Part shown: piece by piece, positions 2,843 through 47,919 of the stretch
How positions within the stretch are numbered: the first letter of the stretch is position 1
Layout of the letters: each line of letters opens with the position of its first letter
From: Leyella stercorea
GTDB lineage: Bacteria; Bacteroidota; Bacteroidia; Bacteroidales; Paludibacteraceae
DNA: 64,000 nt
Assembly (NCBI GenBank): GCA_963658575.1
Contig: CAVKQB010000005.1
Location: 179 to 64,178 of the forward strand
Direction of reading: 5' to 3'
The notes under the pieces: generated by a model
Databases searched by the model: none
Seen by the model: only the letters and a program-made list of their open reading frames with translations
Told to the model about the DNA's origin: nothing
Made by a program: the position numbers and the translations under genes

Positions 2843-3937
2843 TTATTTGTGGGTGATGGTTTGGATAGTATCTATTATCTCCATAGCGGTCTTACGAGGA
2901 ATACGAATGGACTGCGCTGCTGCCAACATATCGGCGGTGGTAGGGTTGCCTTTGCCCATCACCGATGTGGCATGCTCGCCATTATATCCCTGTTTGCAAC
3001 GGGTCAAATCGTACGCCGGTGCTAATGCCCATTTGTCCTCGTGGCAGATAAAACTAAAGTTCTTGGCGTGGTCGTCCTTATTGCCGATAATGACATTGAA
3101 CACCATACGACGGAACATCTGCTCCACCTGCTTGGGGTCTTGGGTTATATAGCCGGTCAGAGCCAACAGCGTCTTATAGTCTGTCTTGGGCGGATAGATG
3201 GATTCGCTGAGCAACGCAGCGGCAGTGGCAATATGCAGCCGTTGCCCATCGGAAGTGAGGTCGAAACGCCGAGAAGCGAAGAACTCACCGTCTATCAGTT
3301 GAAAATCTGGCACATCTATTCCACATTGGCGGGCAAGGCAGTTGTAATGATACTCCTCACGCCCCATATCTTGCGGGTCGTAGGTATGGCGGAACTTCAC
3401 CAACCAATGCCCCGTTTCGTTGGTCAACAAGCATTTAGGGCGACAGCCTCCACTGTTACCGCTATTGAAATACAGCACATCGGCATCTTGTGTGTTCCGC
3501 TCTTGAAACACATCCAATGCCAACTGCTGCAAGGCATGCAGTTCGGGCAAGACACGATTGCCGCTTAGGGTTTGCTCGGGGACATAGCAAAGTGCGCCCA
3601 TACCCGTGCTGCCGACAATACTGAGCCTCTGCAAAGGCGTGAGCGACATATCGTCCACACCTTGATTGCGCAACATACGGTTCAGTAAATAGCGTCCGTA
3701 GCCGTCAGGAAGACTGTCTTCGAAGATACCAAAATTACCGTAGAAAGGTGTAGGCGGCGCGATGAACAAGTCCGGCTTAAGTGGCAAGTCCAGCGGGGAA
3801 ATGGAGAACCCGTCGTGCAGCCACTCCTTGCTGTACTGAAATGTACACCGCCGACCGTCGGCTGCCATTGAGAGCGTGCCGACACAGCGGTCGTGGTACA
3901 ACACCGACAATTTATTGATTGAACTGATTGCGACCAT
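2843..3937 (-). CDS. hipA: HipA-family type II toxin (Ser/Thr kinase)
   Basis: 364 aa. The N-terminus (KLSVLYHDRCVGTLS...FQYSKEWL) resembles the HipA N-terminal coupling region. The C-terminal kinase core contains GNKDDHAKNFSF, matching the HipA catalytic loop. It is paired with an upstream HTH gene. Confidence 0.85.
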   Translation of the reverse strand: MVAISSINKLSVLYHDRCVGTLSMAADGRRCTFQYSKEWLHDGFSISPLDLPLKPDLFIAPPTPFYGNFGIFEDSLPDGYGRYLLNRMLRNQGVDDMSLTPLQRLSIVGSTGMGALCYVPEQTLSGNRVLPELHALQQLALDVFQERNTQDADVLYFNSGNSGGCRPKCLLTNETGHWLVKFRHTYDPQDMGREEYHYNCLARQCGIDVPDFQLIDGEFFASRRFDLTSDGQRLHIATAAALLSESIYPPKTDYKTLLALTGYITQDPKQVEQMFRRMVFNVIIGNKDDHAKNFSFICHEDKWALAPAYDLTRCKQGYNGEHATSVMGKGNPTTADMLAAAQSIRIPRKTAMEIIDTIQTITHK

Positions 3938-4238
3938 GCTTACGGTTCTTATTGCTATTGATGGTTTCCAACTCCTCCATGGTCTTATAGATCGGCTCTG
4001 CCATGACTTGTTTCAACGACTCCTTGTAGCCCAACGCCTTGCAGAGTGCGGCATACTGACGCAGGGAAATGGTGTACTGCGTTTCGAACTTGGCAATGGT
4101 CGGCACAGGCACGCCGCTCATCATCGAAAGCGCCTCCCGTGAAAGTGTGCGCTCCAAACGCCGATGACGCAACTGCTCCGCCAGATATTGCAGTATATCC
4201 TGCTCGGATTCGGTATCGAAAGTGTATAATAAATTCAT
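3912..4238 (-). CDS. hipB: XRE-family helix-turn-helix antitoxin (HipB-like)
   Basis: 108 aa with the HTH segment LSREALSMMSGVPVPTIAKFETQ. Its stop overlaps the annotated hipA start by 26 nt. A TTG lying immediately after the hipB stop would be an alternative hipA start. Confidence 0.75.
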   Translation of the reverse strand: MNLLYTFDTESEQDILQYLAEQLRHRRLERTLSREALSMMSGVPVPTIAKFETQYTISLRQYAALCKALGYKESLKQVMAEPIYKTMEELETINSNKNRKHGRNQFNQ

Positions 4239-4300: not shown

Positions 4301-4570
4301 AATTCATGCCATAAGAGAATAGGGAAGATTCTAAATACATAGGCGGGGCTTTCTGTTGGCGAAAAATTTTCAAATGTTCGGAGAAAAATCTGCGATTCTC
4401 GAATGGAACGGGTGGTATTATTGGTGTATTATAGATCTGTTTCTAAAGCGCGGGCGATGATGTCGTCCTTGTCATACGAGCGCATGCGCAATGCTTTCAC
4501 AAAAGTAGAGATAATTTTCGAATTGCACAACAACGCCGTGGCACGCAAGCCGCACATCGCCACGCCACAA

Positions 4571-4606
4571 ACAAAATTTGCCCCACCTTTTGGGCAGGGC
4601 AAATCG
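4571..4606 (-). terminator. rho-independent terminator of the frd operon
   Basis: On the minus strand, ATTTGCCC...GGGGCAAAT forms a stem (plus-strand 4576-4604) followed by TTTGTTTG. It sits about 25 nt after the frdB stop. Confidence 0.6.
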
Positions 4607-4627
4607 TTCGGTTTATTCCAAGCAAAA

Positions 4628-5383
4628 TCAGTCTTTCAGTTTTGCGCAGATAAATTCACGGTTCAAACGAGCGATGTGCGTCAGCGAAACGCCTTTGGGG
4701 CATTCGGCGGCGCAGGCACCTGTGTTGGTGCAGTTGCCAAAACCGAGTTCGTCCATCTTCGAGAGCATGGCTTTGGCGCGCGCGGCGGCCTCTACTCTGC
4801 CCTGCGGCAACAACGCCAACTGGCTCACTTTGGCGGCTACGAACAACATGGCCGAGCCGTTTTTGCACGCAGCAGCGCACGCACCGCAACCGATACACGA
4901 GGCAGCGTCCATCGCTTCGTCGGCTTTGGCTTTCGGAATCGGAATGGCATTGGCATCGGTGCTGACACCCGTATTCACCGAGATGTAGCCACCGGCCTGC
5001 ATTATCTTGTCGTAGGCACCACGGTCGACCATCAAATCTTTGATGACGGGGAAAGCGTGCGAACGCCACGGCTCCACGGTGATGGTTTCGCCGTCGTGGA
5101 ATTTGCGCATGTGCAGTTGGCAGGTTGTTACGCCGCTGTCGGGTCCGTGCGGATGCCCGTTGATGTAGAGCGAACACATGCCACAGATGCCTTCGCGGCA
5201 GTCGTGATCAAAGGCGATAGGCTCTTTGCGCTCGCTGATGAGTTGTTCGTTCAACACATCGAGCATTTCGAGAAACGAGCTGTCGGTCGAGATGTTTTTC
5301 AGTTCGTACACTTCGAACGAGCCCTTGGCTTTCGGGCCGGCCTGACGCCAAACTTTTACTTTGATATTTATTGTCTTTTCCAT
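4628..5383 (-). CDS. frdB: fumarate reductase/succinate dehydrogenase iron-sulfur subunit
   Basis: 251 aa with Cys clusters [20 protein letters not shown] and [14 protein letters not shown], consistent with 2Fe-2S, 4Fe-4S and 3Fe-4S centres. It is the last gene of the frdCAB arrangement. Confidence 0.95.
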
Positions 5384-5389
5384 TGCCGC

Positions 5390-7522
5390 TTAATTTTTAT
5401 AGTTTCTGGTCTTTCTTTCGGTAAATTCGTAGTCGAGCCGTTCTTTGAGCAGCTTCGGTTCCTGATTTTCGCCCATGTATTTCCAGCAGGCGACATACGA
5501 GAATTTGTCGTCTTGGCGCAAGGCCTCGCCTTCGGGCGTTTGGTACTCTTCGCGGAAATGTCCGCCGCACGATTCTTCGCGGTTCAATGCGTCGCGCGCC
5601 ATCAGTTCGCCTATCTCCAAGAAGTCAGACAGGCGCAAGGCTTTTTCGAGTTCGACGTTCAAGTCGTTGCGCGAGCAGGGGATATAGACTTCGGTCCAGA
5701 ACACTTTTTTCAACGCTTTGATTTTTTCGAGAGCGGTTTTCAAGCCTTCGGCGGTGCGTCCCATGCCTACAAATTCCCACATCACCAAACCGAGTTCGCG
5801 GTGAATGCTGTCTACCGAACGGTGCCCTTGAATGGCCATCAGACGGTCGATTTTAGCGTTCACGGCCTTTTCGGCTTCGACAAATTCGGGCAGTTCGACG
5901 CTCATGCGCGGCACTTGAATCTGGTCGGCCAAATAGTTCTGAATGGTGTAAGGCAGCACGAAATAGCCGTCGGCCAAGCCCTGCATCAGAGCCGATGCGC
6001 CCAAACGGTTGGCGCCGTGGTCGGAGAAGTTGGCTTCGCCTATGCAGAACAAGCCTTTGATGGAGGTTTGCAGTTCGTAATCGACCCAAATGCCGCCCAT
6101 TGTGTAGTGAATGGCGGGGAAAATCATCATCGGCGTTTCGTACGGATTCTCATCGACGATTTTTTCGTACATCTGGAACAGATTGCCGTATTTCTGCTCG
6201 ACAACCTTTTTGCCAAGGCGATCGATGGCGTATTTGAAATCGAGATAAACGGCCAAACCGGTCGAATTTACGCCAAAACCGGCATCGCAGCGTTCTTTGG
6301 CGGCACGCGAAGCCACGTCGCGCGGCACCAAGTTGCCAAACGCCGGATAGCGACGTTCCAAGTAGAAGTCGCGGTCTTCGTCGGGAATATCGGTCGGTTT
6401 CAGTTTGCCAGCGCGTATGGCTTCGGCATCTTCTTTCTTTTTCGGCACCCAGATGCGGCCGTCGTTGCGCAACGATTCCGACATCAGCGTCAGTTTCGAT
6501 TGGAATTCGCCATGCTTCGGAATGCAGGTCGGGTGAATCTGCGCAAAGCACGGATTGGCAAAATAGGCACCTTTGCGGTACATCTGCATGGCCGCCGAAC
6601 CGTTCGAGGCCATGGCGTTGGTCGAGAGGAAGAACGTGTTGCCGTAGCCACCCGAACCAACCACTACTGCGTGAGCAAAGAAGCGTTCGATTTTGCCGGT
6701 AATCAGGTTGCGGGCGATGATGCCGCGGGCGCGACCGTCGATAATCACTACATCGAGCATCTCGTGGCGCGTGTACATCTTCACCGTGCCTTTTTTAATC
6801 TGGCGACTCAATGCCGAATAGGCTCCGAGCAACAGTTGTTGGCCGGTTTGACCTTTGGCGTAGAATGTGCGCGACACTTGTGCGCCGCCAAACGAGCGGT
6901 TGTCGAGCAAGCCGCCGTATTCACGGGCGAAAGGCACGCCTTGCGCCACACATTGGTCGATGATATTGTTCGACACTTCGGCCAAACGGTAGACGTTGGC
7001 TTCGCGAGCGCGGTAGTCGCCGCCTTTGATGGTGTCGTAGTAGAGGCGATATATCGAGTCGCCGTCGTTTTGGTAGTTTTTGGCTGCGTTGATACCGCCT
7101 TGCGCAGCGATGGAGTGTGCGCGGCGCGGCGAGTCCTGAATGCAGAAGTTCAGCACGTTGAATCCGAGTTCGCCCAGCGAGGCAGCCGCCGATGCACCAG
7201 CCAATCCCGTGCCCACCACGATGATGTCGAGGCGGCGTTTGTTGGCGGGGTTCACCAATTTCTGATGGGCTTTGTAGTTCGTCCATTTTTCGGCCAGAGG
7301 GCCTTCGGGTATTTTAGCGGTAACATAGTCGCCTTCGACGGCCGTTTCGACGGCTTTTTTGGCGGCGTGAACCACCTTTTCGGCAGCAACTTTGGTCGCT
7401 TTCACAGCCTCTTGCGTGGCATCGTCGGCAACGACTTCGGCCACTTTTTTGCGCACGGTCTTCACCACCTTTTCGGCAGCGGCCTTGGCGGTTTCGATAG
7501 CAGTTTCTTTCTTGTTTGCCAT
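5390..7522 (-). CDS. frdA: fumarate reductase/succinate dehydrogenase flavoprotein subunit with an unusual ~60-aa Lys/Ala-rich N-terminal extension
   Basis: 710 aa. FAD-binding motif [22 protein letters not shown], plus the conserved [28 protein letters not shown] segment that normally lies at the N-terminus of Bacteroides FrdA. Confidence 0.95.
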
Positions 7523-7549
7523 ATCTCTGTCAAGTTTTATGCGTTAAAA

Positions 7550-8224
7550 TTAAAGGGCACAGCATGCGCCGAGCGAATAACCGAAATAGTAAACCACCAC
7601 GGCAGCAAACATCAGCACGATGAGCGTAGCCACAATGTTGCCAATGCACTTGATGCGCGGCATCCACACGTCGTTGTTCCAACCCAATGTGTGTAGCGCG
7701 CTCCACACGCCGTGCGTCAGGTGATACCACAGCGCACCGAGCCACAGCAGATAGAGTACCACATAGTACCACTGCGAGAAGGTGTACTTAATCAGTTCCA
7801 CACCGCTTGCGGGCTCGTGGCCGAGAATTTCGACCAACTGCATCTTAGCCCAAAAGTTGAACAGGTGCAACGCCAAACCGCAGAGAATGATGAAGCCAAG
7901 CACCAACATGTTTTTCGATGCCCACTCCACCTGCTCCTGACGGGCGGTAACGGCGTAACGTTCGCGACCACGGGCGCGGTAATTCTGCACCGTCAGCACA
8001 AAGGCGTAGCAAATGTGCACCACGGCCAAAAACGCCAGCCCCAGCGTGCCTACCAAGGCATACCAGTTCGCACCCAGAAATTCGCAAATCGCATCGTAGC
8101 CCGATTCGGAAATGATGGCCACGAGATTCATCGTGCCGTGAAAAAGCAGAAACAGCACCAAACAGGCACCCGTTACGCTCATCACGACTTTTCTTCCGAT
8201 GGAAGAGTTTGTCAACCAAGTCAT
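7550..8224 (-). CDS. frdC: fumarate reductase/succinate dehydrogenase cytochrome b subunit
   Basis: 224-aa polytopic membrane protein with conserved His residues. It is the first gene of the operon and ends 27 nt upstream of frdA. Confidence 0.9.
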   Translation of the reverse strand: MTWLTNSSIGRKVVMSVTGACLVLFLLFHGTMNLVAIISESGYDAICEFLGANWYALVGTLGLAFLAVVHICYAFVLTVQNYRARGRERYAVTARQEQVEWASKNMLVLGFIILCGLALHLFNFWAKMQLVEILGHEPASGVELIKYTFSQWYYVVLYLLWLGALWYHLTHGVWSALHTLGWNNDVWMPRIKCIGNIVATLIVLMFAAVVVYYFGYSLGACCAL

Positions 8225-9182: not shown

Positions 9183-10766
9183 ATGAACATCACACTATTT
9201 ATTATCATCGCCGTAGCGGCACTTGCTGGCGGCGGCGCACTCGGCTGGCTCATCACGCACATCAGCGTGAAAGGACGCGTGCAAAAAACACTGAAACAGG
9301 CCGAAAAAGATGCCGAAGAGTTGAAGCGCAACAAGATGCTCGAAGCCAAAGAAAAATTCCTGAACCTGAAATCGGACTTCGAAAAAGAGGTGGCCGACCG
9401 CAACGCCAAAGTGCAAGAGATGGAAAACCGCGCCAAACAGGCCGAATCGCGCATACAACAACGCGAACAAAGCCTGAACCAACGCCAAAACGAGCTGAAT
9501 CAACGCCAAGGCGAACTGCAACGGCGCAACAACGAAATCGACGCCATCAAAGAGAACCTCGACAAGCAACTGCAACTCGTCGACGAGAAAAAACAGGAAC
9601 TCGAACGGCTGCACTTCCAAGCCACCGAAAAACTGTCGGCCATATCGGGACTTTCGGTCGAACAGGCCAAAGCGCAACTCGTCGAAAACATCAAAGACGA
9701 AGCCAAAACCGATGCCATGGCATACGTGAACGAAATGATGGAAGAGGCCAAAATGACGGCCAACAAAGAGGCTAAACGCATCATCATACAAACGATACAA
9801 CGCGTAGCCACCGAAACCGCCATCGAAAACTCGGTTACCGTGTTCCACCTCGAATCGGACGAAGTGAAAGGCCGCATTATCGGCCGCGAAGGGCGCAACA
9901 TACGCGCACTCGAAGCCGCCACTGGCGTGGAAATCATCGTCGACGACACACCCGATGCCATCGTACTTTCGGGCTTCGACCCCGTGCGCCGCGAGATAGC
10001 ACGCTTGGCTCTGCACCAATTGGTTCAAGACGGACGCATACACCCTGCACGCATCGAAGAGGTGGTAGCCAAAACACGCAAACAGGTCGAAGAGGAGATT
10101 GCCGAAGTGGGCAAACGCACCACCATCGACCTCGGCATACACGGCCTGCACCCCGACCTTATCCGCCTAATCGGCAAGATGAAATACCGCTCGTCGTACG
10201 GACAAAACCTGCTGCAACACGCACGCGAAACCGCCAACCTCTGCGCCGTGATGGCCGCCGAACTCGGACTGAATCCGCAGAAAGCCAAACGCGCCGGCCT
10301 GCTGCACGACATAGGCAAAGTGCCCGACGACCAACCCGAACTGCCACACGCCATCTTGGGCATGAACTTGGCCGAAAAGTACAAGGAGAAACCCGACATC
10401 TGCAACGCCATCGGCGCACACCACGACGAGGTGGAGATGACCTCGCTCATCGCGCCCATCGTGCAAATATGCGATGCCATATCGGGCGCACGCCCTGGCG
10501 CACGCCGCGAGATAGTGGAGGCCTACATCAAACGCTTGAACGACCTCGAAAAACTTGCGCTCTCCTACCCCGGCGTGGTGAAAACCTATGCCATACAAGC
10601 CGGCCGCGAACTGCGCGTCATCGTGGGTGCCGACCGCGTGGACGACAAAGCCGTGGAGACACTCTCGTACGACATCGCCAAGAAGATTCAGGACGAGATG
10701 ACCTACCCCGGCCAAGTGAAAATCACCGTGATACGCGAAACACGCGCCGTAAGTTACGCCAAATAA
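9183..10766 (+). CDS. rny: ribonuclease Y
   Basis: 527 aa with an N-terminal TM helix, a long coiled coil, a KH domain ([19 protein letters not shown]) and an HD domain (LLHDIGK...GAHHDE). Confidence 0.95.
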
Positions 10767-10787
10767 AAACGCTGACAAAAAAACGGA

Positions 10788-10819
10788 ATCGGGCTGCAAA
10801 CATTGCAGCCCGATTTTTT
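10788..10819 (+). terminator. rho-independent terminator after rny (possibly bidirectional)
   Basis: Perfect 12-bp stem ATCGGGCTGCAA / TTGCAGCCCGAT with a 3-nt loop, followed by TTTTT. An A-run upstream means it could also stop the convergent dnd operon. Confidence 0.8.
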
Positions 10820-10842: not shown

Positions 10843-12426
10843 TTATTGCCATTGACCTTTCTGCCAATATTGATTTACACAAAACAATTCTCCTTTGGGA
10901 AACTCCTTAATATTGGATATTGCTTGTCCTTTCTGTATTTTTTCCAAACTACGATAAGCCTTGGCACCATCTTTATCCGTCAGCCCCAAGAATCTATTTA
11001 TTGGCCTCACATTATTTTTATCCTTTATATCAAGCAAAAAAGCAATTTCGCACATTGATGAAAAGTCGAACCCTTTTTGATTATATTCCTCTATACCTTG
11101 GGACAACAACACAATGGAAACCCCTTTTGAACGTATCTCACGCAGCATTTTTTCCAATATTTCCTCATATCTCTTTTCCTTGAACAATACATGCGCCTCA
11201 TCAATCAATATCACATAGCGCAATGCCTTGATATTGTCTTCAGTAGGAGTATTATCCATATTCATAAACACATTGTACATATAGTTGATAATCAAAAATA
11301 AAGACGTGAAGCGCACAGGGATGGGAAGATCGCCCGACAAAGAAAGATACAAATTTTTATTCAGAAAGTTCGATTCGTTTTTTTTGTCGTCTACAAAAAT
11401 TTTATAACGGCTCAAGTCATCCATTATTTCGGTCAGGCTATCCTGCTTGTCATATATTTCCAATAACCTTTCGTTAATTTGCGAAATTGTAGGATAAACG
11501 CCGCCACGCGCTTCCATAAAAGCGGCAGCAGTAGCATCCCGAAGCCTTCCCTTTTGTTTTGGCCCCAAATTCAGCGAACATTTGCAGACAATATCCACAA
11601 ATTTGTCGATGCCCATATTTTTGTTTTGCTCATTCACATTATCAATGAAAGTGAGTGGATTTATCGGAAACGGCGTATTAGGTACATCAATAAACTCGGT
11701 TTTCGTGTCATTGAAAAATTTTTCATAGGTCATCACATCATCCTGCTTCAACCCCTTAAAATCCAAATAAATATAGTTTACATGCCCATTCGACTTCTCA
11801 TAGATTTGCGAAATAACGTCTTTGGCGAATTCAGTTTTTCCAGTTCCCGAATTTCCGGCGACAGCAATATGGCAATTATTATATAGCGTACTGTCATTCA
11901 TGCTTAAATAAACAGGGGCGTTGTTTCCAATGGTTCGACCAACCTCCAATTTGATAAGGTTTGAAAAATAGGCTTTTTTAACATTTTGATTGTTGTTTCT
12001 CACATGGCCATTCGGAACATCCACATCAACCAAATGTTGGATACCCTTTTCTATATACTCGTTCAAGAAATCAAAGAAAGTATATTCGTTGCTTTCGAAA
12101 ATTTTATCCAACAATGACAAACCATCGTCAATGTGCATTTTAATGTATTTCGGGATGCTGTCGTCCGTTTTGTAAACGCCATAATATTGACATATCAATG
12201 CGATATAAAAATCTCGATATTGTGGGTCAAATAATATATGTTCCTTGTATTCCTTGCCCTTGGAATCCGCCGCATCATTGACATTGAACTTTTTCCCCTG
12301 TTGCAAAGAATAGGCCAACGCTATGCGGGCGATCACATTCTCTGCTATATTTTCTCCCAATTTTGGAGTAAGGCGACGGATTATTTCCTGACTCGCTTCT
12401 GACGTTTTGATGTTAATTTGCGCCAT
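10843..12426 (-). CDS. DndE-like N-terminal domain fused to a HerA/FtsK/VirB4-type P-loop ATPase
   Basis: 527 aa. The N-terminal ~110 aa (KTSEASQEIIRRLTPKLGENIAENVIARIALAYSLQ) resemble DndE. Walker A is AVAGNSGTGKTEF. Walker B/DEAH-like is VILIDEAHVLF, followed by RSKGVSIVLLSQG. It overlaps the dndD stop by 14 nt. Confidence 0.65.
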   Translation of the reverse strand: MAQINIKTSEASQEIIRRLTPKLGENIAENVIARIALAYSLQQGKKFNVNDAADSKGKEYKEHILFDPQYRDFYIALICQYYGVYKTDDSIPKYIKMHIDDGLSLLDKIFESNEYTFFDFLNEYIEKGIQHLVDVDVPNGHVRNNNQNVKKAYFSNLIKLEVGRTIGNNAPVYLSMNDSTLYNNCHIAVAGNSGTGKTEFAKDVISQIYEKSNGHVNYIYLDFKGLKQDDVMTYEKFFNDTKTEFIDVPNTPFPINPLTFIDNVNEQNKNMGIDKFVDIVCKCSLNLGPKQKGRLRDATAAAFMEARGGVYPTISQINERLLEIYDKQDSLTEIMDDLSRYKIFVDDKKNESNFLNKNLYLSLSGDLPIPVRFTSLFLIINYMYNVFMNMDNTPTEDNIKALRYVILIDEAHVLFKEKRYEEILEKMLREIRSKGVSIVLLSQGIEEYNQKGFDFSSMCEIAFLLDIKDKNNVRPINRFLGLTDKDGAKAYRSLEKIQKGQAISNIKEFPKGELFCVNQYWQKGQWQ

Positions 12427-14527
12427 GACTAATTTGATTGTATGTTGTGAATAAATTTGACGGTTCCGTTTCCATAAATTCAGAACTATCTGTTGTTGTA
12501 TTGTTAATTAAAAATGCCCGACAAACCTTTGGTTGGAGCAACCGATATTCTTCTTCCGTTAATTCCTTATATAATAATGGCAAAATGACCACTTGTTTGG
12601 CAACGTTAGGATAGAAATGCCTAATGATATTCTCTGCATGTTGTTTGTCAAACTTCTGCATAGGAGAGTCAATAAATACAGGAAAATCTATTTCAGATTC
12701 GGACACCAACGAATTTAACAAAGCCGAGGCATATAGTTGCCTTTCGCCCATAGATAAACCACTTTTGTTTATTTCTTCATCATTTGCTCCATACAAAACA
12801 ATATCGATGTCTTCGCTTGACATTATATCTACATCTATGCGTTGAACAAAATCCTTCTTATGCAATAATTGCGTAAGGGATTCTAACATTTTTGCCTGCA
12901 GCGACTCTTTCTTTTGATTCTTGAACTTCGTAATAAACTCGGCAAGTATATCAATAAGTTCTTTCGTTTTTTGTGCCTTTTCCGAATATTGCGTCGAATC
13001 GTCGATTTTTTTACGAATGGCCGTTTGCTCTTGACGAAGTTTCTTCAAATTTTCTTTCAATTCGTCGATTTTTCGATTTAGACTTCCTATTTTCTCTGCC
13101 TCTTCTCTAATTAAGCCATCAAAACTATCTTTTTGATCTCTCAAATCCTTTATACGGCCATCTTGTGCATTCCGCTCGGCATCGCGGATTTTGCGGCTGA
13201 TGACTGCAAGTTGGTTTCTTATGCCCATATATTCCGTATTAAGTTTTTCAAATCTGTATTTGAAGTCATTTTTAATTGACGATACAAGTTGATTGAAGTC
13301 ATGGATTTGATTTTCAGAAAAGTCGTGCAAAACTTTCAAATTTTCATCTATTTCTATGGCATCTGAGAAATATTTGATGATTGCCTCTCTAATTTGTTCG
13401 CGATAGAAATCGGCGACCTTAACATCTACCGTAAAGTTTCGGCGGCATCTTTCGTCGTCAATATCTTGTCTGATTCTGTCAATCTTTTCCCCTATATCCT
13501 CTTGTTTGAATTTTTGTTCGGACAAAATTCGCTCATTTTCAAGTTGTTCCGTGACATTCGCCAAGATTTCACCCGTCAAAGCAAACGGGATGTAATTAAA
13601 GCTTTCTTTTAATGCATTTTGTATATCCTTCTTTTGCTGTTCCAATTTGTTCTTTTCATCATTAAGTTGGCGCAATTCTTCTACACTCATTTTATCTCCA
13701 GCCCTTACAAGCCTTATTGAAAGTTCGTCCGAAATGTGCCTGTGCCGAGAAATTTGTTCATCTAATTTTTCAATTTCTTGGTCGGTTTCCTGAATTTCCA
13801 ATTCCGTATTTTTAATATCGGTTTCTAACTGGTTAAGTTGTCGTTTGTCATTTGTTTGCGCCGATTTCTTACGATATTCATCCTGTTTTTCCTCAAGATT
13901 ATCCTTAAGTATTTCGTATTTCTGTATTCCCAACACTTCCGAATAGGCTTGGCTTAATTGTTGCCGTTGTTCTTTTTGATTGTTGTTTGCGGCCAAGGCG
14001 GTTATTTTCTCCGCATCAAAAAAGAAAAATTTAGCGATGGCAATAGGCAAAATATAATCTCGGATAAAAATCTCTTCTCCTTTTTTGTTATCTTGTGAAA
14101 GATTATCTATCAATTCTTGCGCATAACCATCCAACAACACTTCAATTTTATCAGAAGTTCCTGTTATCGTATCGTAACTGCGTTTTATGGAAACATCACA
14201 GAGAACACCCTGTATATTAACTTCTGAGAACAGAATCTTTACATAGAAGTTGTGCTCTCCTTCCGCAGCTGCCTTACGGTTCATGCAGTCTGCTATATAG
14301 CGCGTATAGTTGCCTTGTTCGGTGATTTCGTTTTTATATATAGCATCGACTTGCTCCATGTTTTTGCCATACAAACACCAAACCAGCGACATAAGGAATG
14401 TTGTTTTCCCAAAACCGTTTTGCCCACTTAAAATAACAATGTTTTTATCGTTCTCGGGCATCAACGAAATTCGATTAACGCCCTTATAAATGCGAAAGTT
14501 GTTTAGTTCTATTTCTTTGATACGCAT
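12413..14527 (-). CDS. dndD: DNA sulfur modification protein DndD (SMC/ABC-like ATPase)
   Basis: 704 aa. N-terminus MRIKEIELNNFRIYKG...ILSGQNGFGKTTFL (Walker A), a long central coiled coil, and a C-terminal ABC signature/Walker B region (LSMGERQLYA...VFIDSP). Confidence 0.85.
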   Translation of the reverse strand: MRIKEIELNNFRIYKGVNRISLMPENDKNIVILSGQNGFGKTTFLMSLVWCLYGKNMEQVDAIYKNEITEQGNYTRYIADCMNRKAAAEGEHNFYVKILFSEVNIQGVLCDVSIKRSYDTITGTSDKIEVLLDGYAQELIDNLSQDNKKGEEIFIRDYILPIAIAKFFFFDAEKITALAANNNQKEQRQQLSQAYSEVLGIQKYEILKDNLEEKQDEYRKKSAQTNDKRQLNQLETDIKNTELEIQETDQEIEKLDEQISRHRHISDELSIRLVRAGDKMSVEELRQLNDEKNKLEQQKKDIQNALKESFNYIPFALTGEILANVTEQLENERILSEQKFKQEDIGEKIDRIRQDIDDERCRRNFTVDVKVADFYREQIREAIIKYFSDAIEIDENLKVLHDFSENQIHDFNQLVSSIKNDFKYRFEKLNTEYMGIRNQLAVISRKIRDAERNAQDGRIKDLRDQKDSFDGLIREEAEKIGSLNRKIDELKENLKKLRQEQTAIRKKIDDSTQYSEKAQKTKELIDILAEFITKFKNQKKESLQAKMLESLTQLLHKKDFVQRIDVDIMSSEDIDIVLYGANDEEINKSGLSMGERQLYASALLNSLVSESEIDFPVFIDSPMQKFDKQHAENIIRHFYPNVAKQVVILPLLYKELTEEEYRLLQPKVCRAFLINNTTTDSSEFMETEPSNLFTTYNQISHGAN

Positions 14528-14544: not shown

Positions 14545-15897
14545 TTATAAGTATTTTTCTATAACCTGTTCCATCTCATCCTTTAGACCGCGTTTGCGAT
14601 TCAGAAGTGCTTTTTGTTTCTGTAATTCAAGCAGTGCTTGAATCAAGTCAAAATCTTGACCATCCGCAGGACAAACGGATTTCAACAATTCGGTTTCTTT
14701 TTGCAATTTTTCCGTTAAGTTTTTCATGTCCAATTCTTTATTATAAACATTATTGTAAATTTCCGAAACGGTTTGGTAGTTCAATAATTCTCTACCCTTT
14801 TTACTTGACATCGCCAAATCACGCCTCCAAATCACTTGAATGGCAATAAGTTCTTGATTACTTATCAACTCGACACTGGAATGCGTTTGCTGAATGGCGT
14901 ATTGAGCCATCAATAACTGTTTAAGCAATCGTTCCCGATATTCGTGCGTGTAATTTCCTTGGTTGTGTCCATCTTCTGTAACAGCCTTTTGCCCGTTACG
15001 GCGTGTCTGCATACGATTATTTGACACATTACGCTCCTCAAACATACTCTGCCGCAAATCCAATAATGGCTTTAACCATTCCTGTCCCCTTTCGACCAAA
15101 GCCGTTAATGATTTATCCTCGTTCACTACCGTACATGTCCAACAGCCAAAGCGACTTTGTCCACATGATCCATGGCTCTTGTCTGTAACCATAGTCGGAC
15201 ACTCATAATCATCTGCACTTGCATCTAAATAGATTTGGAATAATTTAGAATTATCCGCACCCCACGGCGAAGTCATTGCATTTATGATATACCAAACTTC
15301 TTCCAGCATCAAATCTTTAATCGGTGCGTAAACAAATGTATTGTAATGATGGGGATGTTTGGAAAGCCGTTTTCCTCTGATTTCGTGTTTTTTGATAGAC
15401 CTTGCCCTTGTTGCACTCTCTGCGCTCCGTGTACCAATTAAAATAATGGCCTCTCCATTGGCCGTTACTTGTTCAACAATAAAACGGGAAGTCGGTTTTA
15501 TTTTCATCTTATCGGTACACCAACGAAACGTATTGTTTGGTACGGGATAGCCTCTGCCAATAACATTAACCCAAAAACTATCATCCAAACAAGGAATAGT
15601 CATATGCACCGTTACAGGCATATTCTGCTGTACCGCCGCACCTTCAATTTTTTTCAACACATCCTTCACATATCCCTGAATAACAGGATTTTCAACAAGT
15701 GTGTCGTTACAGACGACATGTATTTCTCGTTTACGCATCTCCGAAGGGATTTCGCTTACTGCGAGCCAAACCAATTGTAACAAGGCTGTAGAATCCTTGC
15801 CTCCGCTAAACCCAACAATCCAAGGTCGCCAATTATCATCAATCAAGTATTGATCTTTTATTTCTGAAATAATATAACTTATTCGTGTCATAAGCAT
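14545..15897 (-). CDS. dndC: DNA phosphorothioation sulfurtransferase DndC (PAPS-reductase/PP-loop fold)
   Basis: 450 aa with the PP-loop IVGFSGGKDSTALLQL and a Cys-rich segment (CPTM...SCGQSRFGCWTC) typical of the DndC Fe-S site. Confidence 0.85.
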   Translation of the reverse strand: MLMTRISYIISEIKDQYLIDDNWRPWIVGFSGGKDSTALLQLVWLAVSEIPSEMRKREIHVVCNDTLVENPVIQGYVKDVLKKIEGAAVQQNMPVTVHMTIPCLDDSFWVNVIGRGYPVPNNTFRWCTDKMKIKPTSRFIVEQVTANGEAIILIGTRSAESATRARSIKKHEIRGKRLSKHPHHYNTFVYAPIKDLMLEEVWYIINAMTSPWGADNSKLFQIYLDASADDYECPTMVTDKSHGSCGQSRFGCWTCTVVNEDKSLTALVERGQEWLKPLLDLRQSMFEERNVSNNRMQTRRNGQKAVTEDGHNQGNYTHEYRERLLKQLLMAQYAIQQTHSSVELISNQELIAIQVIWRRDLAMSSKKGRELLNYQTVSEIYNNVYNKELDMKNLTEKLQKETELLKSVCPADGQDFDLIQALLELQKQKALLNRKRGLKDEMEQVIEKYL

Positions 15898-15921
15898 CTA
15901 ATTTTGATTCAAAATTTTAAC

Positions 15922-16126
15922 CAACAAAAAAGGCATTCACTATTTTGTTCGTTACTTATTTAAGAAAGAAAGGTTCCGCCAAGAACCGCCGACGATAAAT
16001 AAGTACAAAATAGTTCATGCCACAATAGCGTGAACCTTTGCATGCTTATTCTCTCGTCATAAAACTTGGCGGATTTATCTTTCTGAGAATAAGAGCGTAA
16101 AGCCCAAATTATGAATATGTTAGTTT
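15922..16126 (-). ncRNA. candidate structured 5' leader / cassette-junction element, copy A (paralog of 46019-46217)
   Basis: The reverse complement aligns colinearly with the region upstream of the Type III mod gene. This includes a 20/21-identical block GCTTTACGCTCTTATTCTCA (16103-16084) and two helices with compensatory changes. See findings. Confidence 0.45.
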
Positions 16127-16190
16127 AGTTTTTCGTTTTTTCTGCTATTCTGTTGATTTATTGTTTTACAAAAAATGCGTGCATTATCGG

Positions 16191-17012
16191 TTACTGCAAC
16201 ACCATATTATATAGTTGGCAGCCGGCAAAGGCATCAGGAGTGCAGGCGGGCGGCTCGGCGTCGGGGGCGAACAGGCCGTAGATGGTGCTTCCGCTACCCG
16301 ACATGGCGGCATACGCTGCACCGCTGTCGTACAAACGCTGCTTGATGTCGGCCAGCACAGGGTGCCGCGCAAAGACATTCGCTTCGAAATCGTTGAATAC
16401 GCCATTGCGCCATTCGGCCACGGGGCGTTGCAAGGCCTCGCGCAGCGGCACCGCCCAACGTTTGCAGGCAATGTGCGCATAGGCTTCGGCCGTAGCGACA
16501 TGCACATCGGGTTTCACCAGCCAAATGTGCCAACCTGCCAACGGAAGCGCGATATCGGAAAAGCGGTCGCCGATGCCTTCGGCAAAAACGGGTTTGTTGC
16601 GCACGAAAAATGCGCAATCGGCACCCAACTGCGCGGCGTAACGTTCGAGGCGGTCGTCCGTAAGCCCCAGACCGAACTGCGCATTGAGCAGTTTGAGCAT
16701 GAAAGCCGCATCGCTCGAGCCGCCGCCCAAGCCAGCCCCCATCGGGATTTTTTTGAGCAACGCAATGGTCGCGTTCGGCAGGTCGAAATCGCGCTGCAGC
16801 AGACGGAACGCGCGCACAACCAGATTGTCGTCGCACGCGCCAGCGACAGGCGTGCCATAGGTGCGCAACGCAAGCGCATCGGCCGGCACAACTTCGAGTG
16901 CATCGCACAAGGCGATGGGATAGAACACCGTCTCGATGTCGTGGTAACCGTCGGCACGGCGCGCCACCACGTTCAAACCCAAGTTGATTTTAGCATTCGG
17001 AAAAACGACCAT
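16191..17012 (-). CDS. ispE: 4-(cytidine 5'-diphospho)-2-C-methyl-D-erythritol kinase
   Basis: 273 aa. The N-terminus FPNAKINLGLNVVARRADGYHDIETVF and the GHMP kinase motif PMGAGLGGGSSDAA match IspE. Confidence 0.92.
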   Translation of the reverse strand: MVVFPNAKINLGLNVVARRADGYHDIETVFYPIALCDALEVVPADALALRTYGTPVAGACDDNLVVRAFRLLQRDFDLPNATIALLKKIPMGAGLGGGSSDAAFMLKLLNAQFGLGLTDDRLERYAAQLGADCAFFVRNKPVFAEGIGDRFSDIALPLAGWHIWLVKPDVHVATAEAYAHIACKRWAVPLREALQRPVAEWRNGVFNDFEANVFARHPVLADIKQRLYDSGAAYAAMSGSGSTIYGLFAPDAEPPACTPDAFAGCQLYNMVLQ

Positions 17013-26814: not shown

Positions 26815-27888
26815 TCATTTCTTCACCAAGATTCCCATGGCATCGAGCACTTTGTCGCGGAAATCGATGTTTTGCTGCACGCCGGCGAAGCGTTCGGCAC
26901 CTGGGCCAAAGGCAAACACAGGCACAGGCACGCCGCTGTGGTCGGGCTTGTTGAATTTGCATTCGACGTGGCCAGTGGCAAAATCGCCGTTGATGATGGA
27001 GAGTGCGCCAGTTTCGTGGTCGGCGGTAATCACCACGAGCGTGTTGCCGTCCTTGCGTGCAAAGTCGAGCACCTTGCCGATGGCGCGGTCGAAATCGAGC
27101 ATTTCGCGAATCATCTCTTCGCCGTTGTTGTTGTGGCATTGGTAGTCGATTTGCGAGCCTTCGACCATGAGGAAGAATCCGTTGGTGTCGCGCGCCAGCA
27201 CTTCGATGGCCTTTTCGACGGCCGATGGCAGGTAGTCGCCGCGCTCGGAGGCTATCGGCATATCGATGTCGGCCAGCGGAGCGAGTATTTTCGGGCTGTT
27301 CGACTTCAGCAGGTCGGCTTCGGTATAGACCACGTCGTAGCCTTTGTCGGCAAATTGGCGCGAGAGGTTTTGTCCGTCGGCACGCTGTTCGAGGTTTTGG
27401 CGGCCGCCGCCAATCAGCACGTCGATGTCGGCAGCGAGCATGTCGAGCGCGATTTCGTCGTACATTTTGCGCGAAATTTGGTGCGCGTAGAAGTCGGCCG
27501 GTGTGGCGTGGGTGAGCGGACACGTTACGACGATGCCCGTGGCTTTGCCGTTTTGGCCGGCGTAGTAGAGCGACGAGTAGAGCGGCGTGATGCTGTCGGG
27601 GGCAAGTCCGACCATGTTGTTGCGTGTTTTGCTGCCCGTGGCCAACGCTGTGCCGCCGGCCGCGCTATCGGTGATGTAGTTGTTGGCCGAGTAGGTTTTG
27701 CTGAATCCGGTGATGGGGCACTGCTCGATGTTGAGCGAGCCGCCATTGGCGGTGAGTGCGGCGTAGATTTGGTTGATTCCCATGCCGTCGCCAATCATGA
27801 ACACGACGTTTTTGACTTTTGGCTGCGCCAGAAGCGACGAGCAGCAGAGTGCTAATAATACTCCACAGAGAAATTTTTTAGTTTGCAT
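26815..27888 (-). CDS. alkaline phosphatase (PhoA family), secreted
   Basis: 357 aa with a signal peptide, VVFMIGDGMGINQ and DSAAGGTALATG (active-site Ser context). Confidence 0.9.
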   Translation of the reverse strand: MQTKKFLCGVLLALCCSSLLAQPKVKNVVFMIGDGMGINQIYAALTANGGSLNIEQCPITGFSKTYSANNYITDSAAGGTALATGSKTRNNMVGLAPDSITPLYSSLYYAGQNGKATGIVVTCPLTHATPADFYAHQISRKMYDEIALDMLAADIDVLIGGGRQNLEQRADGQNLSRQFADKGYDVVYTEADLLKSNSPKILAPLADIDMPIASERGDYLPSAVEKAIEVLARDTNGFFLMVEGSQIDYQCHNNNGEEMIREMLDFDRAIGKVLDFARKDGNTLVVITADHETGALSIINGDFATGHVECKFNKPDHSGVPVPVFAFGPGAERFAGVQQNIDFRDKVLDAMGILVKK

Positions 27889-28924
27889 ATTCGTATTGTA
27901 AATTTTTGAAAATATAATCTACAGGCGGGGTAAAGATATCTCCCTTTATGAGGCTCAATTTGTTTTTAGTGGCTGTAATAGCCAAATCCGATTGGTCGAT
28001 GCCAATCCATTTTCGTCCATTTCTTTGGGCAGCCGCCAACGTGGTACCGCTCCCACAGAAACAGTCCATCACAATACTGTCTTCATTGGAAGAGGTCTTG
28101 ATAATTAAATCCAACATCTCGGCATTTTTCTCGGTTGGGTAATTAGGATATTGTGGGTCTTTATATTCCCAAATATCCTGAACCCTTTTTCCGTCGCGCT
28201 CGTCGGCATAGATGATTTTGCGTGGATTGCCGTTCGACGACCATTCTATCAAACCGACCTTGTCCCATCTTTCCAATGTGGCGACATCTGTCCGCCAATG
28301 CCGCCCTTGCGGCGGGTAAATTCCCTTGAATGGCTGGTTGGATTTCCCGTTTTCGGTTTCGCCAGGGGCGTGAATGGGAACAGTTGTATAGCGTCGGCCG
28401 TTTCGGTCTATTTTCGGGAATAGTTTTTCCACATCTTTTTCCGTGTATTTTTCCCGTGGCTCGTTCCAAATAGGGAAAGATGTTTTGGTATAAAAAAGTA
28501 TCAAATCTTTTATATTGCCGTAACCGATTCTTTCAAAATTTTTCGGATTGCACTTTATGCGTGTAATGTCATTCCTAAAATTTTCGATGCCAAACACTTC
28601 GTCCATCATCACTTTTACATAATGGCCGATTTTGTAGTCGATATGCAGATAAACAGAGCCTTGGTCAGACAACAATTCCCGAATAAGAATCAAACGATTC
28701 CGCAAAAAATCGATAAAATCGCTCCCTTTTAACGTATCGGCATAGGCAATCTCTCCGTTGCGTGAATTGCTAATGGTCGAGGCGCGTCCGTTTGTGATAG
28801 TAAAATTGCCTCCTGTTGCAAAGGGAGGGTCGATATATACCAAATCAATCTTCCCGCCATATCCCTGTTCCAACAGATAGTTCAGCCCTGTAATGTTTTC
28901 ACTATGTATCAGTAGGTTTTTCAT
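27878..28924 (-). CDS. Type II DNA methyltransferase, beta-class (probable N6-adenine)
   Basis: 348 aa. Motif IV (IDPPFATGGNF) is near the N-terminus and motif I (DCFCGSGTTLAAA) near the C-terminus. AT-rich relative to flanking DNA. Its ATG overlaps the upstream endonuclease stop (TAATG). Confidence 0.85.
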   Translation of the reverse strand: MKNLLIHSENITGLNYLLEQGYGGKIDLVYIDPPFATGGNFTITNGRASTISNSRNGEIAYADTLKGSDFIDFLRNRLILIRELLSDQGSVYLHIDYKIGHYVKVMMDEVFGIENFRNDITRIKCNPKNFERIGYGNIKDLILFYTKTSFPIWNEPREKYTEKDVEKLFPKIDRNGRRYTTVPIHAPGETENGKSNQPFKGIYPPQGRHWRTDVATLERWDKVGLIEWSSNGNPRKIIYADERDGKRVQDIWEYKDPQYPNYPTEKNAEMLDLIIKTSSNEDSIVMDCFCGSGTTLAAAQRNGRKWIGIDQSDLAITATKNKLSLIKGDIFTPPVDYIFKNLQYEYAN

Positions 28925-29706
28925 TACAATTGATATAAAAATTCACGCAAAACCAAGGCACTCATAATATTGTATGACTTGTACGTTTCCGTTATTTCCC
29001 GATACATTTTGTTGTTGCCTTTTATGTAGAGTACACCATCGAGAATCGCTATTTTTTCCGCTTTTACACGTTTTGTTTCGACGGTCGAAATAGCATCGTT
29101 GAATTGAGCGTTTTGATGCCCTCCAAAATCAGTCAAAAACTTGGCTTCTCCAATCACATATTTTCCGTTGAAACGACCTACGAAATCAAGTCCCTTGTCT
29201 CTGTCATATCCCAACTCCTCTTTCGCAAAATCCATCATCAATTTATCGTTTCCATCGAGGATGGCATTCCCTTTTGATGAAAGGAACTTTTCCAGCCCTA
29301 CAGGTTTTATTCCTAAAGCCTTTGATTTGAGCCACTCCTTAAACATGGGACCAATTTGCCGATTGGTTTCTTTGGGTTCGCTGCAGCGTTCGTACAATTT
29401 TGACAATCCTAATTCATAAATTCTACCACAAAGACGGTTGATTGTTTCTGGATTCCTTTCGATGGCCGATTTATCTCTCTTTAAGTAAGCAACATAACTA
29501 TCTTTTATGGGAAACAAATCCAATTCCAATAGGGAGCGTATCAGTTGAACATTGTTTTTTTGTTTGAACGCTTTTTCCACATTTCCCCAAACATTACCGT
29601 TTATATCCCTTATCCCTTCTGGAATGGTAGGATATACGCGGAATAGGTCGTCCAAATAAGAACGTTGATTGGCGTATTCGATGCTGAGTTTTGTCCACTT
29701 TTTCAT
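28924..29706 (-). CDS. putative Type II restriction endonuclease (PD-(D/E)xK-like)
   Basis: 260 aa from the ATG at 29706 (MKKWTKLSIEY...). It has a candidate D...E-x-K motif (LDFVGRF...VIGEAKF), is translationally coupled to the methylase, and has AT-rich composition. The family was not identified. Confidence 0.6.
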   Translation of the reverse strand: MKKWTKLSIEYANQRSYLDDLFRVYPTIPEGIRDINGNVWGNVEKAFKQKNNVQLIRSLLELDLFPIKDSYVAYLKRDKSAIERNPETINRLCGRIYELGLSKLYERCSEPKETNRQIGPMFKEWLKSKALGIKPVGLEKFLSSKGNAILDGNDKLMMDFAKEELGYDRDKGLDFVGRFNGKYVIGEAKFLTDFGGHQNAQFNDAISTVETKRVKAEKIAILDGVLYIKGNNKMYREITETYKSYNIMSALVLREFLYQL

Positions 29707-29726
29707 ATCGTTCAAGTTTTTTTGGA

Positions 29727-30077
29727 TTATTCTATTACGACCTCTTCGTCGAAGGCATCGTTGTCGTTGAGTTCGTGGCGGAAGTCGGCGAGTTCGCGGC
29801 GCAGTGCTTCGAGCGTGTCGCGCAGTTTTTGTTTGCGTTCCACATCGCTTTTGTTTGTAGCGAGCCGCTCTTTTGCGCCCGAAATGGTCAGTTTTTGGTC
29901 GTTCAGCAGAAATTGAATCAGTTTCACCGTTTCGATATCGGCGGGACTGTAGTAGCGGCGGCCGTTGGTGCGCTTGGGGTTGAGTTGCGAAAATTCCTTT
30001 TCCCAATAGCGCAAAGTCGAGGCGTTCACGCCGAACTGCTCGGCCACTTCGTTGATGGAGTAATAGGCTTTTTCCAT
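29727..30077 (-). CDS. MerR-family transcriptional regulator
   Basis: The sequence YSINEVAEQFGVNASTLRYWEKEF...RTNGRRYYSPADI is a MerR HTH, followed by a C-terminal coiled coil. The start was taken at MEKAYYS. Composition matches the host. Confidence 0.8.
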   Translation of the reverse strand: MEKAYYSINEVAEQFGVNASTLRYWEKEFSQLNPKRTNGRRYYSPADIETVKLIQFLLNDQKLTISGAKERLATNKSDVERKQKLRDTLEALRRELADFRHELNDNDAFDEEVVIE

Positions 30078-30126
30078 GGATTTTTTTAATTCCCCGATAG
30101 GGAAACGCAACTTTCACATTTTTTAC

Positions 30127-46255: not shown

Positions 46256-47908
46256 ATGCCCACACTCAATTGGATTGGAAAAGAGAAAGTCGTTACTCAC
46301 GCCGACCATGTCCCCTACCGTGTATTAGACCACAAGTACGACTATGGCGAGCCGACGGATAGCCCTGCGGCGGGCGAGGACGGAGGCAATATGATTATTC
46401 ACGGCGACAATCTCGAAGCCCTGAAAGCCCTGCTGCCAAAGTACGAGAACAAGGTGGACTGCATCTACATCGACCCGCCGTACAACACGGGCAACGAGGG
46501 TTGGGTGTACAACGACAATGTGAACGACCCGCATATTCGCAAGTGGTTGGGCGAGGTGGTAGGCAAAGAAGCCGAAGACCTCACCCGCCACGACAAGTGG
46601 CTATGCATGATGTACCCCCGTTTGGTGCTGCTGCAAAAACTCCTTTCTCCCACAGGGGCTATCTTTATCTCCATAGACGACAACGAACAAGCCAACCTCA
46701 AACTCATCTGCGACGAGATTTTCGGCGCAGGGAACTTTGTGGCTTGTTACTTGTGGAATAAAACATCCACGCCACCAGCTTTATCCAAGAAGGTTAGACG
46801 AACGCACGAATATATTCTTTGTTACAATAAAAACAATGATGGTTCTCAAAAATATATAGGATTGGTCAACGATGGAGGCGATGCTCCAATTCTAAACGAA
46901 ATAAACAAAGAGATTACCCTTTCTTTTCCGGCAAATTATGTTGTTACAACCTTACCTGATGGGATTTACAATGCTGGTGATAGGGAACGGGTATGTTTAC
47001 TTAATGATGTTGTTGTTTCTAATGGAATAATAAAATCTCCCTTTCAGTTGAAAGGGCATTTTCGATGGACACAAAGTACGCTTGACTATGAAATCAGTCA
47101 AAAGTGTCGCTTGATAATCAAGAGTAATAAATTTGCAATAAGGTATTGCCGACAAGAAGACAGAACTGTAGCACCTCCTAACTTTATCACAGAGCGTTTT
47201 TATTTAGGAACGGCTATTGATAAAGAAACGAATGTAGATACCAATGATAAGGCGGGTGAAGAATTGAAATGTATTTTTGGTTCTAAGGTTTTTGAGTTCC
47301 CTAAACCACACTCACTAATTGAATACCTTATAGGCTTCTTAGGCAATCCCAACGCCCTTATCCTCGACTCCTTTGCGGGTAGCGGCACAACCGCCCACGC
47401 TGTCTTGAATCTCAACAAGCAGGACGGGGGACACCGCCGCTTTATCTTGGTCGAGATGTGCGACTATGCCGAGACCATTACCGCCGAGCGGGTGCGGCGT
47501 GTCATTAGTGGCTACGGCGAGGGCAGCAAAGCCGTGGAGGGGACGGGCGGCACATTCTCCTACTACGAACTGGGCGAGACCCTGTTTCATGGCGAAAACC
47601 TAAACGAAAACGTCGGCACCGAAAAACTGCGCGAATACATCTGGTACTGCGAGACACGCACGCCCTACGCCAAAAACGGAGCGGCAAGCGCAAATGCCTA
47701 TCATTTGGGCAATTACAATAATGTAGGCTATTACTTCTACTACGAACGGGACAAAACGACCACATTGGACAAAGCGTTTTTGAACACCATTGCCGCACGC
47801 GCCGACCAATACATCGTCTATGCCGACAATTGCCTGTTGAGCGTCGAATTTATGCAAGCCAACCATATCATTTTCAAAAAGATACCGCGCGACATACGCA
47901 GATTTTAA
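46256..47908 (+). CDS. mod: Type III restriction-modification methyltransferase (Mod), N6-adenine
   Basis: 550 aa. Motif IV is CIYIDPPYNTGNEGW and motif I is LDSFAGSGTTAHAV. A central AT-rich target-recognition region lies between them. A Res gene follows. Confidence 0.9.
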   Translation: MPTLNWIGKEKVVTHADHVPYRVLDHKYDYGEPTDSPAAGEDGGNMIIHGDNLEALKALLPKYENKVDCIYIDPPYNTGNEGWVYNDNVNDPHIRKWLGEVVGKEAEDLTRHDKWLCMMYPRLVLLQKLLSPTGAIFISIDDNEQANLKLICDEIFGAGNFVACYLWNKTSTPPALSKKVRRTHEYILCYNKNNDGSQKYIGLVNDGGDAPILNEINKEITLSFPANYVVTTLPDGIYNAGDRERVCLLNDVVVSNGIIKSPFQLKGHFRWTQSTLDYEISQKCRLIIKSNKFAIRYCRQEDRTVAPPNFITERFYLGTAIDKETNVDTNDKAGEELKCIFGSKVFEFPKPHSLIEYLIGFLGNPNALILDSFAGSGTTAHAVLNLNKQDGGHRRFILVEMCDYAETITAERVRRVISGYGEGSKAVEGTGGTFSYYELGETLFHGENLNENVGTEKLREYIWYCETRTPYAKNGAASANAYHLGNYNNVGYYFYYERDKTTTLDKAFLNTIAARADQYIVYADNCLLSVEFMQANHIIFKKIPRDIRRF

Positions 47909-47919
47909 CCCGTAGAGCC

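Follow-up and report, generated by a model that had tools for sequence, protein, structure and literature searches.

DndEi is a helicase-bearing, extended form of DndE that, as summarized in PMC6435447, was named and characterized by Zheng et al. (2016, J Biol Chem 291:1492). In this summary, DndEi is known from Riemerella anatipestifer, Flavobacterium indicum, and Kordia algicida, and the extra domain of the R. anatipestifer protein is reported to possess helicase and ATPase activity, its inactivation abolishing phosphorothioate (PT) modification, the placement of sulfur in the DNA backbone. The ATPase is stated to be strongly stimulated by GAAC/GTTC DNA (PMC6435447, citing Barbier 2013 and Zheng 2016), and the DNA of this species, represented in the same account by strain ATCC 11845, is described as PT modified at GAAC/GTTC. 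Within the human microbiome, dndEi has also been reported for Prevotella and Bacteroides (PMC7464106). In addition, the HerA/FtsK domain fused to DndE, the DndD-like ATPase adjoining it, and the kinship of the fused domain to the HerA/FtsK domain of DndH ("clade 3") were published in NAR in 2024 (PMC10853773).

Here we analyzed a fusion gene encoded in a 64-kb stretch of DNA, referred to as the window; the coordinates of the features are compiled in Table 1. The gene starts with ATG and is the last of a low-GC island, with dndD and dndC located directly upstream on the same strand. A preliminary description of the window had noted a 527-aa ORF that overlaps dndD by 14 nt; its coordinates proved to be exact, the strand being minus, and the overlap was correct. 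Comparison with the 526-aa protein of R. anatipestifer RCAD1090 (species-representative genome L041; the strain named in PMC6435447 is ATCC 11845) revealed an identity of 65%, with 82% positives, in an alignment of 524 residues that covers both proteins from end to end. The two proteins share the same two domains and are of almost the same length (526 versus 527 aa), and their genes occur in the same order, with overlapping or abutting neighbors. Both loci are minimal three-gene islands placed between housekeeping genes, which in R. anatipestifer are a universal stress protein gene and HmuY/TonB receptor genes. In contrast, the hosts differ, as the closest relatives of the window are labeled Prevotellaceae/Bacteroidales and its flanks have a GC content of ~53%. 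Four features of DndEi were thus found, namely, (i) a DndE N-terminal domain, (ii) an ATPase/helicase domain in the same polypeptide, (iii) orthology to the Riemerella protein, and (iv) adjoining dndC and dndD genes. We conclude, with a probability of roughly 0.9, that the window gene is a dndEi orthologue, located third in a minimal dndC-dndD-dndEi PT operon that was acquired horizontally and acts by the mechanism proposed below. The fusion of DndE to an ATPase is real and represents an ordinary member of the published DndEi family, of which the architecture, the biochemistry, and the kinship to DndH are all already known.

Table 1. Features of the dndC-dndD-dndEi island and of the protein encoded by its last gene
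Feature	Coordinates	Strand	Basis
dndEi, 527-aa DndE + HerA/FtsK-class ATPase/helicase fusion	10843..12426	-	ORF; domain matches; 65% end-to-end identity with the R. anatipestifer orthologue
N-terminal DndE domain, residues 6-112	12091..12411	-	PF08870; TIGR03184; profile match to 7X4E
C-terminal HerA/FtsK-class ATPase	10867..11988	-	PADLOC DndH C-region; 7ES4; Foldseek; pLDDT mostly >85
Walker A GNSGTGKT, residues 191-198	11833..11856	-	Sequence; G, G, G, K, and T invariant in 45 homologues
Walker B VILIDEAH, residues 405-412	11191..11214	-	Sequence; D-E-A-H invariant in 45 homologues
RSKGVSIVLLSQ, candidate arginine finger + sensor-1 glutamine of the HerA/FtsK clade, residues 432-443	11098..11133	-	YjgR alignment
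dndD, SMC/ABC-type ATPase, 704 aa	12413..14527	-	TIGR03185, 285 bits (cutoff, 246); PADLOC DndD and PbeC models
dndC, PP-loop/PAPS-reductase-type sulfurtransferase, 450 aa	14545..15897	-	TIGR03183, 449 bits (cutoff, 290); PADLOC DndC, E 1.6e-146
AT-rich intergenic region upstream of dndC, presumed operon promoter region	15898..16190	-	GC ~0.33-0.38; sequence read
Perfect 13-bp hairpin between convergent dndEi and rny, likely bidirectional terminator	10787..10815	.	Inverted repeat I15; A/T-run flanks
Example loci with varying downstream neighbors of dndEi	L005:12102-13331; L062:10398-11642; L045:13726-14526; L014:11577-12917		

The N-terminal part of the protein had been described as DndE-like, which was borne out by two results. 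Pfam family DndE (PF08870; cutoff, 25 bits) matched this domain with 72 bits (E value of 6e-20) over positions 2 to 109 of the 111 positions of the model, and a profile of the N-domain and stand-alone DndE proteins matched the solved DndE structure 7X4E with an E value of 1.2e-11. The alignment underlying this profile contained nine proteins of stand-alone DndE size (118 to 164 aa) and the N-domain of Riemerella DndEi. The profile was required for this match, since a single-sequence search of the PDB with the fusion protein returned no DndE match for the N-domain. Residues T8, S9, E29, N30, G57, K58, and Y82 are invariant between the N-domain of the fusion protein, Riemerella DndEi, and the alignment of stand-alone DndE proteins. 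The likeness to canonical, stand-alone DndE (7X4E; PF08870; TIGR03184) consequently consists of ~110 N-terminal residues that match the whole DndE model and of the invariant positions, whereas canonical DndE has a length of ~118 to 135 aa and the fusion protein adds an ATPase domain of ~380 aa. The score of the fusion protein against TIGR03184 was 43 bits, which is under the equivalog cutoff of 71.85 and places it outside the canonical DndE equivalog, as is expected for a divergent, fused form. The AlphaFold model of the DndE part, obtained with a 45-sequence alignment, is of low confidence (pLDDT of 30 to 50); the assignment of this domain is thus based on sequence and profiles and implies no claim as to its fold.

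The C-terminal part had been assigned to the HerA/FtsK-type P-loop ATPases akin to the motor of DndH, and both the sequence and the predicted structure agree with this assignment. The Pfam families AAA_10, HerA_C, DUF87, and FtsK_SpoIIIE matched this part weakly. Much better matches were obtained with the PADLOC DndH models (E value of 1e-24), which aligned over their C-terminal ATPase region (model positions ~1297 to 1614 of 1678), and the best sequence relative of solved structure was the DptH/DndH fragment PDB 7ES4 (E value of 9e-9). The AlphaFold model, which was based on 45 homologues, is of high confidence for residues ~145 to 526. A structure prediction followed by a Foldseek search had been suggested in the preliminary description for confirmation of both domains; the fold of the ATPase was supported in this way, and the DndE part was supported by its profile match to 7X4E. 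The best Foldseek match of the ATPase model was the C-domain of DndH (7ES4; E value of 1.3e-18; target-normalized TM score of 0.84; rmsd of 3.1 Å), followed by VirB4, HerA, SIR2-HerA complexes, TdpAB, and TrwB.

In sequence as well as in fold, the C-domain of DndH was therefore the best match to residues ~147 to 460 of the fusion protein. However, DndH has ~1700 aa and includes further domains, among them a restriction endonuclease and an inactive methylase, of which the fusion protein has none. Scans against Pfam, NCBIfam, and PADLOC detected no nuclease or other effector domain in it, and the DndH models matched with their ATPase part alone, so that the protein does not belong to the DndH/DptH restriction subunits. 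The ring ATPases HerA, VirB4, and TrwB, including the motors of the SIR2-HerA, DUF4297-HerA, and TdpAB systems, are of the same P-loop fold class and have the Walker A motif, the Walker B motif (DEAH), the arginine finger, and the glutamine sensor in common with the fusion ATPase, but they share 11 to 16% identity with it, have weaker TM scores, and possess other partners and N-terminal domains.

All motifs that the preliminary description had quoted are present, i.e., GNSGTGKT (residues 191 to 198), VILIDEAHVLF (residues 405 to 415), and RSKGVSIVLLSQG (residues 432 to 444, in full-protein numbering). The Walker B motif aligns to the DEAH of the HerA-like protein YjgR. Furthermore, RSKGVSIVLLSQ, the RSKG...LLSQ segment, aligns with IRSKGVGVWFVSQ of YjgR, and its R, G, S, and Q are invariant in the 45 homologues. 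The arginine finger and the Q-sensor are named as features of the HerA/FtsK clade in PMC10853773. [quoted passage not shown] All catalytic motifs of the protein are intact and invariant across the 45 homologues.

The island is bounded by rny (RNase Y; 9183..10766), which is convergent to dndEi, and by a 273-aa ORF (16191..17012) that we read as ispE from inspection of its sequence, without a family search. The inverted repeat I15 between dndEi and rny is 100% complementary and has a 3-nt loop. The GC content is 0.37 in the dnd island and ~0.53 in its flanks, and this foreign composition suggests horizontal acquisition. The dndC, dndD, and dndEi ORFs are intact, with full-length matches to the family models. 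Scans of ORFs and domains between rny and ispE showed that dndA, dndB, dndFGH, and nuclease genes are absent from the island, and no cysteine desulfurase was found among the subset of window ORFs that was scanned. The island is not a complete Dnd R-M system (dndABCDE + dndFGH), as it encodes neither dndFGH nor another PT-dependent nuclease in cis; in the 80 related loci described below, no DndH-like match was present within 10 kb. A search for direct repeats or att sites flanking the island returned short, chance-level matches. An island-free allele was sought by means of the exact RNase Y protein, which retrieved just two other assemblies, both of which enter the same dndEi gene.

Two observations concern the neighboring proteins. 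(i) One PADLOC PbeC model matched DndD (12413-14527, minus strand) from end to end with 869 bits, versus ≤309 bits for the PADLOC DndD models. Based on this match, a Pbe system was considered and rejected: PbeC is itself a DndD-like ABC ATPase (PMC10853773), and the other Pbe components are absent. Automated defense finders could mislabel this clade of DndD proteins as part of Pbe. (ii) Residues 400 to 447 of DndC (14545-14700, minus strand) weakly resemble the Pfam family Sp-DndD (PF20306; E value of 3e-4; 21 bits, with a cutoff of 27), which Pfam describes as a "small protein found in certain Dnd systems." Judging from this similarity, the Sp-DndD small protein may have been fused to DndC as its C-terminal tail.

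To assess the distribution of the fusion, we retrieved its relatives at several levels. A collection of 5.8 billion proteins contained at least 984 matching proteins, and the best 120 of these were all 522 to 538 aa long and had DndE and ATPase Pfam matches; the NCBI name of the best-scoring relatives is "DndE family protein." Among the representatives of 50%-identity clusters, there were 735 matches at E values of ≤1e-3, in which full-length relatives of ~500 to 540 aa reached down to ~24% identity. Stand-alone DndE proteins among these cluster matches aligned to the N-terminal part, and proteins of DndH size (1624 and 1817 aa) aligned to residues ~156 to 465. In contigs representing one genome per species, 176 stretches encoded a relative of the fusion protein. 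Eighty of these loci were kept, which were mostly from Bacteroidota (Prevotellaceae, Tannerellaceae, Flavobacteriaceae, Saprospiraceae, and others). The preliminary description had called for a survey of how often such fusions occur next to dndCD; the order dndC-dndD-fusion gene was maintained in all 80 loci, wherever the contig reached. The closest species-representative locus (L001; CAVGYO010000014.1; 83% identity) is labeled Erysipelotrichaceae, and others (L003 and L022) are labeled Streptococcaceae and Acidaminococcaceae. As nearly all relatives are from Bacteroidota, these labels point to misbinned metagenome contigs or to recent transfer.

The genes located downstream of dndEi vary among the related loci (examples are listed in Table 1). 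In 24 of the 80 loci, dndEi is followed after ~17 nt by a gene for a ParB-like protein of ~365 aa with a PD-Lambda-5_A-like N terminus (e.g., L013:11581-12678), and in 20 loci a conserved 331-aa protein without a Pfam or PADLOC match comes next (e.g., L007:12691-13677). The window lacks this pair, which is a candidate for a partner module of dndC-dndD-dndEi. In addition, the genes downstream of dndEi were observed to encode DndB/DpdB-like DGQHR proteins (~21 loci), a HARE-HTH-containing restriction endonuclease of the Mrr type (6 loci), or a GHKL-type ATPase (4 loci).

Canonical DndE prefers nicked duplex DNA. In the mechanism that we propose, the N-terminal DndE domain would bind DNA, and the C-terminal HerA/FtsK-class ATPase would couple ATP hydrolysis to the unwinding or translocation of DNA at the target motif. 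The SMC/ABC ATPase DndD and the PP-loop sulfurtransferase DndC would then insert sulfur in the backbone, with the sulfur being derived from a cysteine desulfurase presumably encoded elsewhere in the genome. Housekeeping IscS, NifS, or SufS may substitute for DndA, according to a proposal cited in PMC10853773. By analogy, the window protein would act like its Riemerella orthologue, i.e., as a helicase/ATPase that is needed for PT, and would oligomerize like other HerA/FtsK ATPases; the target motif of the protein and an actual PT modification of the host DNA are likewise predicted from the described systems. The N-domains of the window protein and of R. anatipestifer DndEi are 67% identical, so the recognition sequence could differ from that of Riemerella. 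As far as the window shows, the island is a modification-only module because it encodes no restriction partner.

Other explanations of the fusion and of its island are conceivable. For any contig of metagenome type, there is a generic possibility that an assembly or sequencing frameshift has merged two separate genes, one for a small DndE and one for an ATPase, and we found no further support for such an event. The same single ORF, of 523 to 538 aa, occurs in the best 120 relatives, relatives are present in 176 species-representative genomes, and the full-length architecture is retained in the 50%-identity clusters down to ~24% identity. Two further, independent assemblies contain DNA that is 98 to 100% identical from rny into the 3' part of dndEi. 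Since the single ORF is conserved, we reject a frameshift artifact, the probability of which is practically negligible; its unlikelihood had already been noted in the preliminary description and is now supported by a single frame (523 to 538 aa) kept in hundreds of relatives. The island might also be an inactive remnant, with three genes that fell into disuse without dndA, dndB, and a restriction partner. The lack of dndA, dndB, and dndFGH in the island and its foreign GC content, which suggests horizontal acquisition, are in line with this idea. We nevertheless judge it to be very improbable: the three ORFs are intact, match the family models over their full length, and have conserved catalytic motifs; the same minimal layout exists in R. 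anatipestifer, the DNA of which is described in PMC6435447 as PT modified at GAAC/GTTC; and the absence of DndA could be compensated for by IscS, NifS, or SufS, as proposed in work cited in PMC10853773.

A further possibility is that the fused HerA/FtsK motor has a restriction-like role or scans DNA for PT, so that modification and surveillance would be combined in one polypeptide, as the preliminary description had suggested. This reading draws on the fact that the C-domain of DndH, a restriction protein, is the closest match of the ATPase in both sequence and fold, that the SIR2-HerA, DUF4297-HerA, and TdpAB defense complexes, which are also among the fold matches, are powered by related motors of the HerA type, and that candidate effectors are encoded directly downstream in related loci (ParB-like in 24 of 80, Mrr-like nuclease in 6 of 80). 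However, the fusion protein carries no nuclease or other effector domain, and neither in the window nor in R. anatipestifer is dndEi followed by another operon gene. A survey of anticorrelation with dndFGH had been suggested as well; in cis, a tblastn search of the 80 related loci with the ATPase domain detected no second, DndH-like copy of this domain at a distance of up to 10 kb. Among the 13 large ORFs of ≥800 aa in the flanks of the related loci, the 4 that were scanned against PADLOC (955 to 1620 aa) included no DndH. Moreover, according to PMC6435447, inactivation of the helicase of the orthologue abolishes the modification itself, which places this domain outside any restriction or sensing arm. 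With no nuclease and no dndFGH in the island and with the orthologous domain acting in modification, a restriction or scanning function was not supported, and we regard it as improbable. In some of its versions, the module might, with a low probability, work with a restriction partner; this concerns the other loci and not the window. It is similarly doubtful that the DndH-like motor of DndEi serves in addition as a docking or translocation module for variable, unlinked or downstream effectors that restrict unmodified DNA, for which the candidates would be the ParB-like protein and its 331-aa partner encoded directly downstream in about a quarter of the related loci. If this were true, the effector of the orphan island in the window would have been lost or would be encoded elsewhere in the genome. 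The DndEi orthologue acting in modification is thus our preferred reading. Of the preliminary description, the domain anatomy, the position beside dndD, and the absence of an artifact stood; the restriction or sensing function did not, nor did the implied novelty, as the architecture had already been named DndEi (PMC6435447; PMC7464106; PMC10853773).

Several other loci of the window deserve mention. A type II R-M pair is located at 27878-30117 (minus strand) and consists of a Tsp45I-family endonuclease (28924-30117; 416 bits with PF06300) and a DNA methylase of the N6/N4 type (27878-28924); it is abutted by a 357-aa ORF (26815-27888). An apparent type III R-M pair is found at 46256-50565 (plus strand), where a DNA methylase (46256-47908; PF01555) overlaps a ResIII helicase/res subunit (47830-50565). 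Together with the dnd island, there are three DNA modification loci in 64 kb. Directly after the type III res gene, a 2427-aa ORF is encoded on the opposite strand (50749-58032, minus strand) that had no Pfam match at E values of ≤1e-5; since it overlaps with a 1582-aa ORF of the other strand, either of the two may be the real gene. At 2843-4238 (minus strand), a HipA-like toxin kinase (2843-3937) and a small HTH_3/HTH_31 partner (3912-4238) look like a hipBA-type toxin-antitoxin pair, as judged from precomputed Pfam matches on a 98%-identical contig (L081). A 1097-aa ORF (4403-7696, plus strand) overlaps the fumarate reductase/succinate dehydrogenase genes (4628-8224, minus strand); like several further long ORFs of the GC-rich flanks, it is apparently an antisense shadow of real genes and should not be taken for a gene.

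Taken together, dndEi is the appropriate annotation for the gene, in place of plain dndE or a fusion of unknown kind. In this Bacteroidales-like genome, the gene flags a modification-only dndC-dndD-dndEi island of horizontal origin. Bacteroidota very commonly have the three-gene module, as indicated by the relatives of the fusion protein in 176 species-representative genomes. The module is not linked in cis to dndFGH, in agreement with published work that regards Dnd modification as decoupled from DndFGH.
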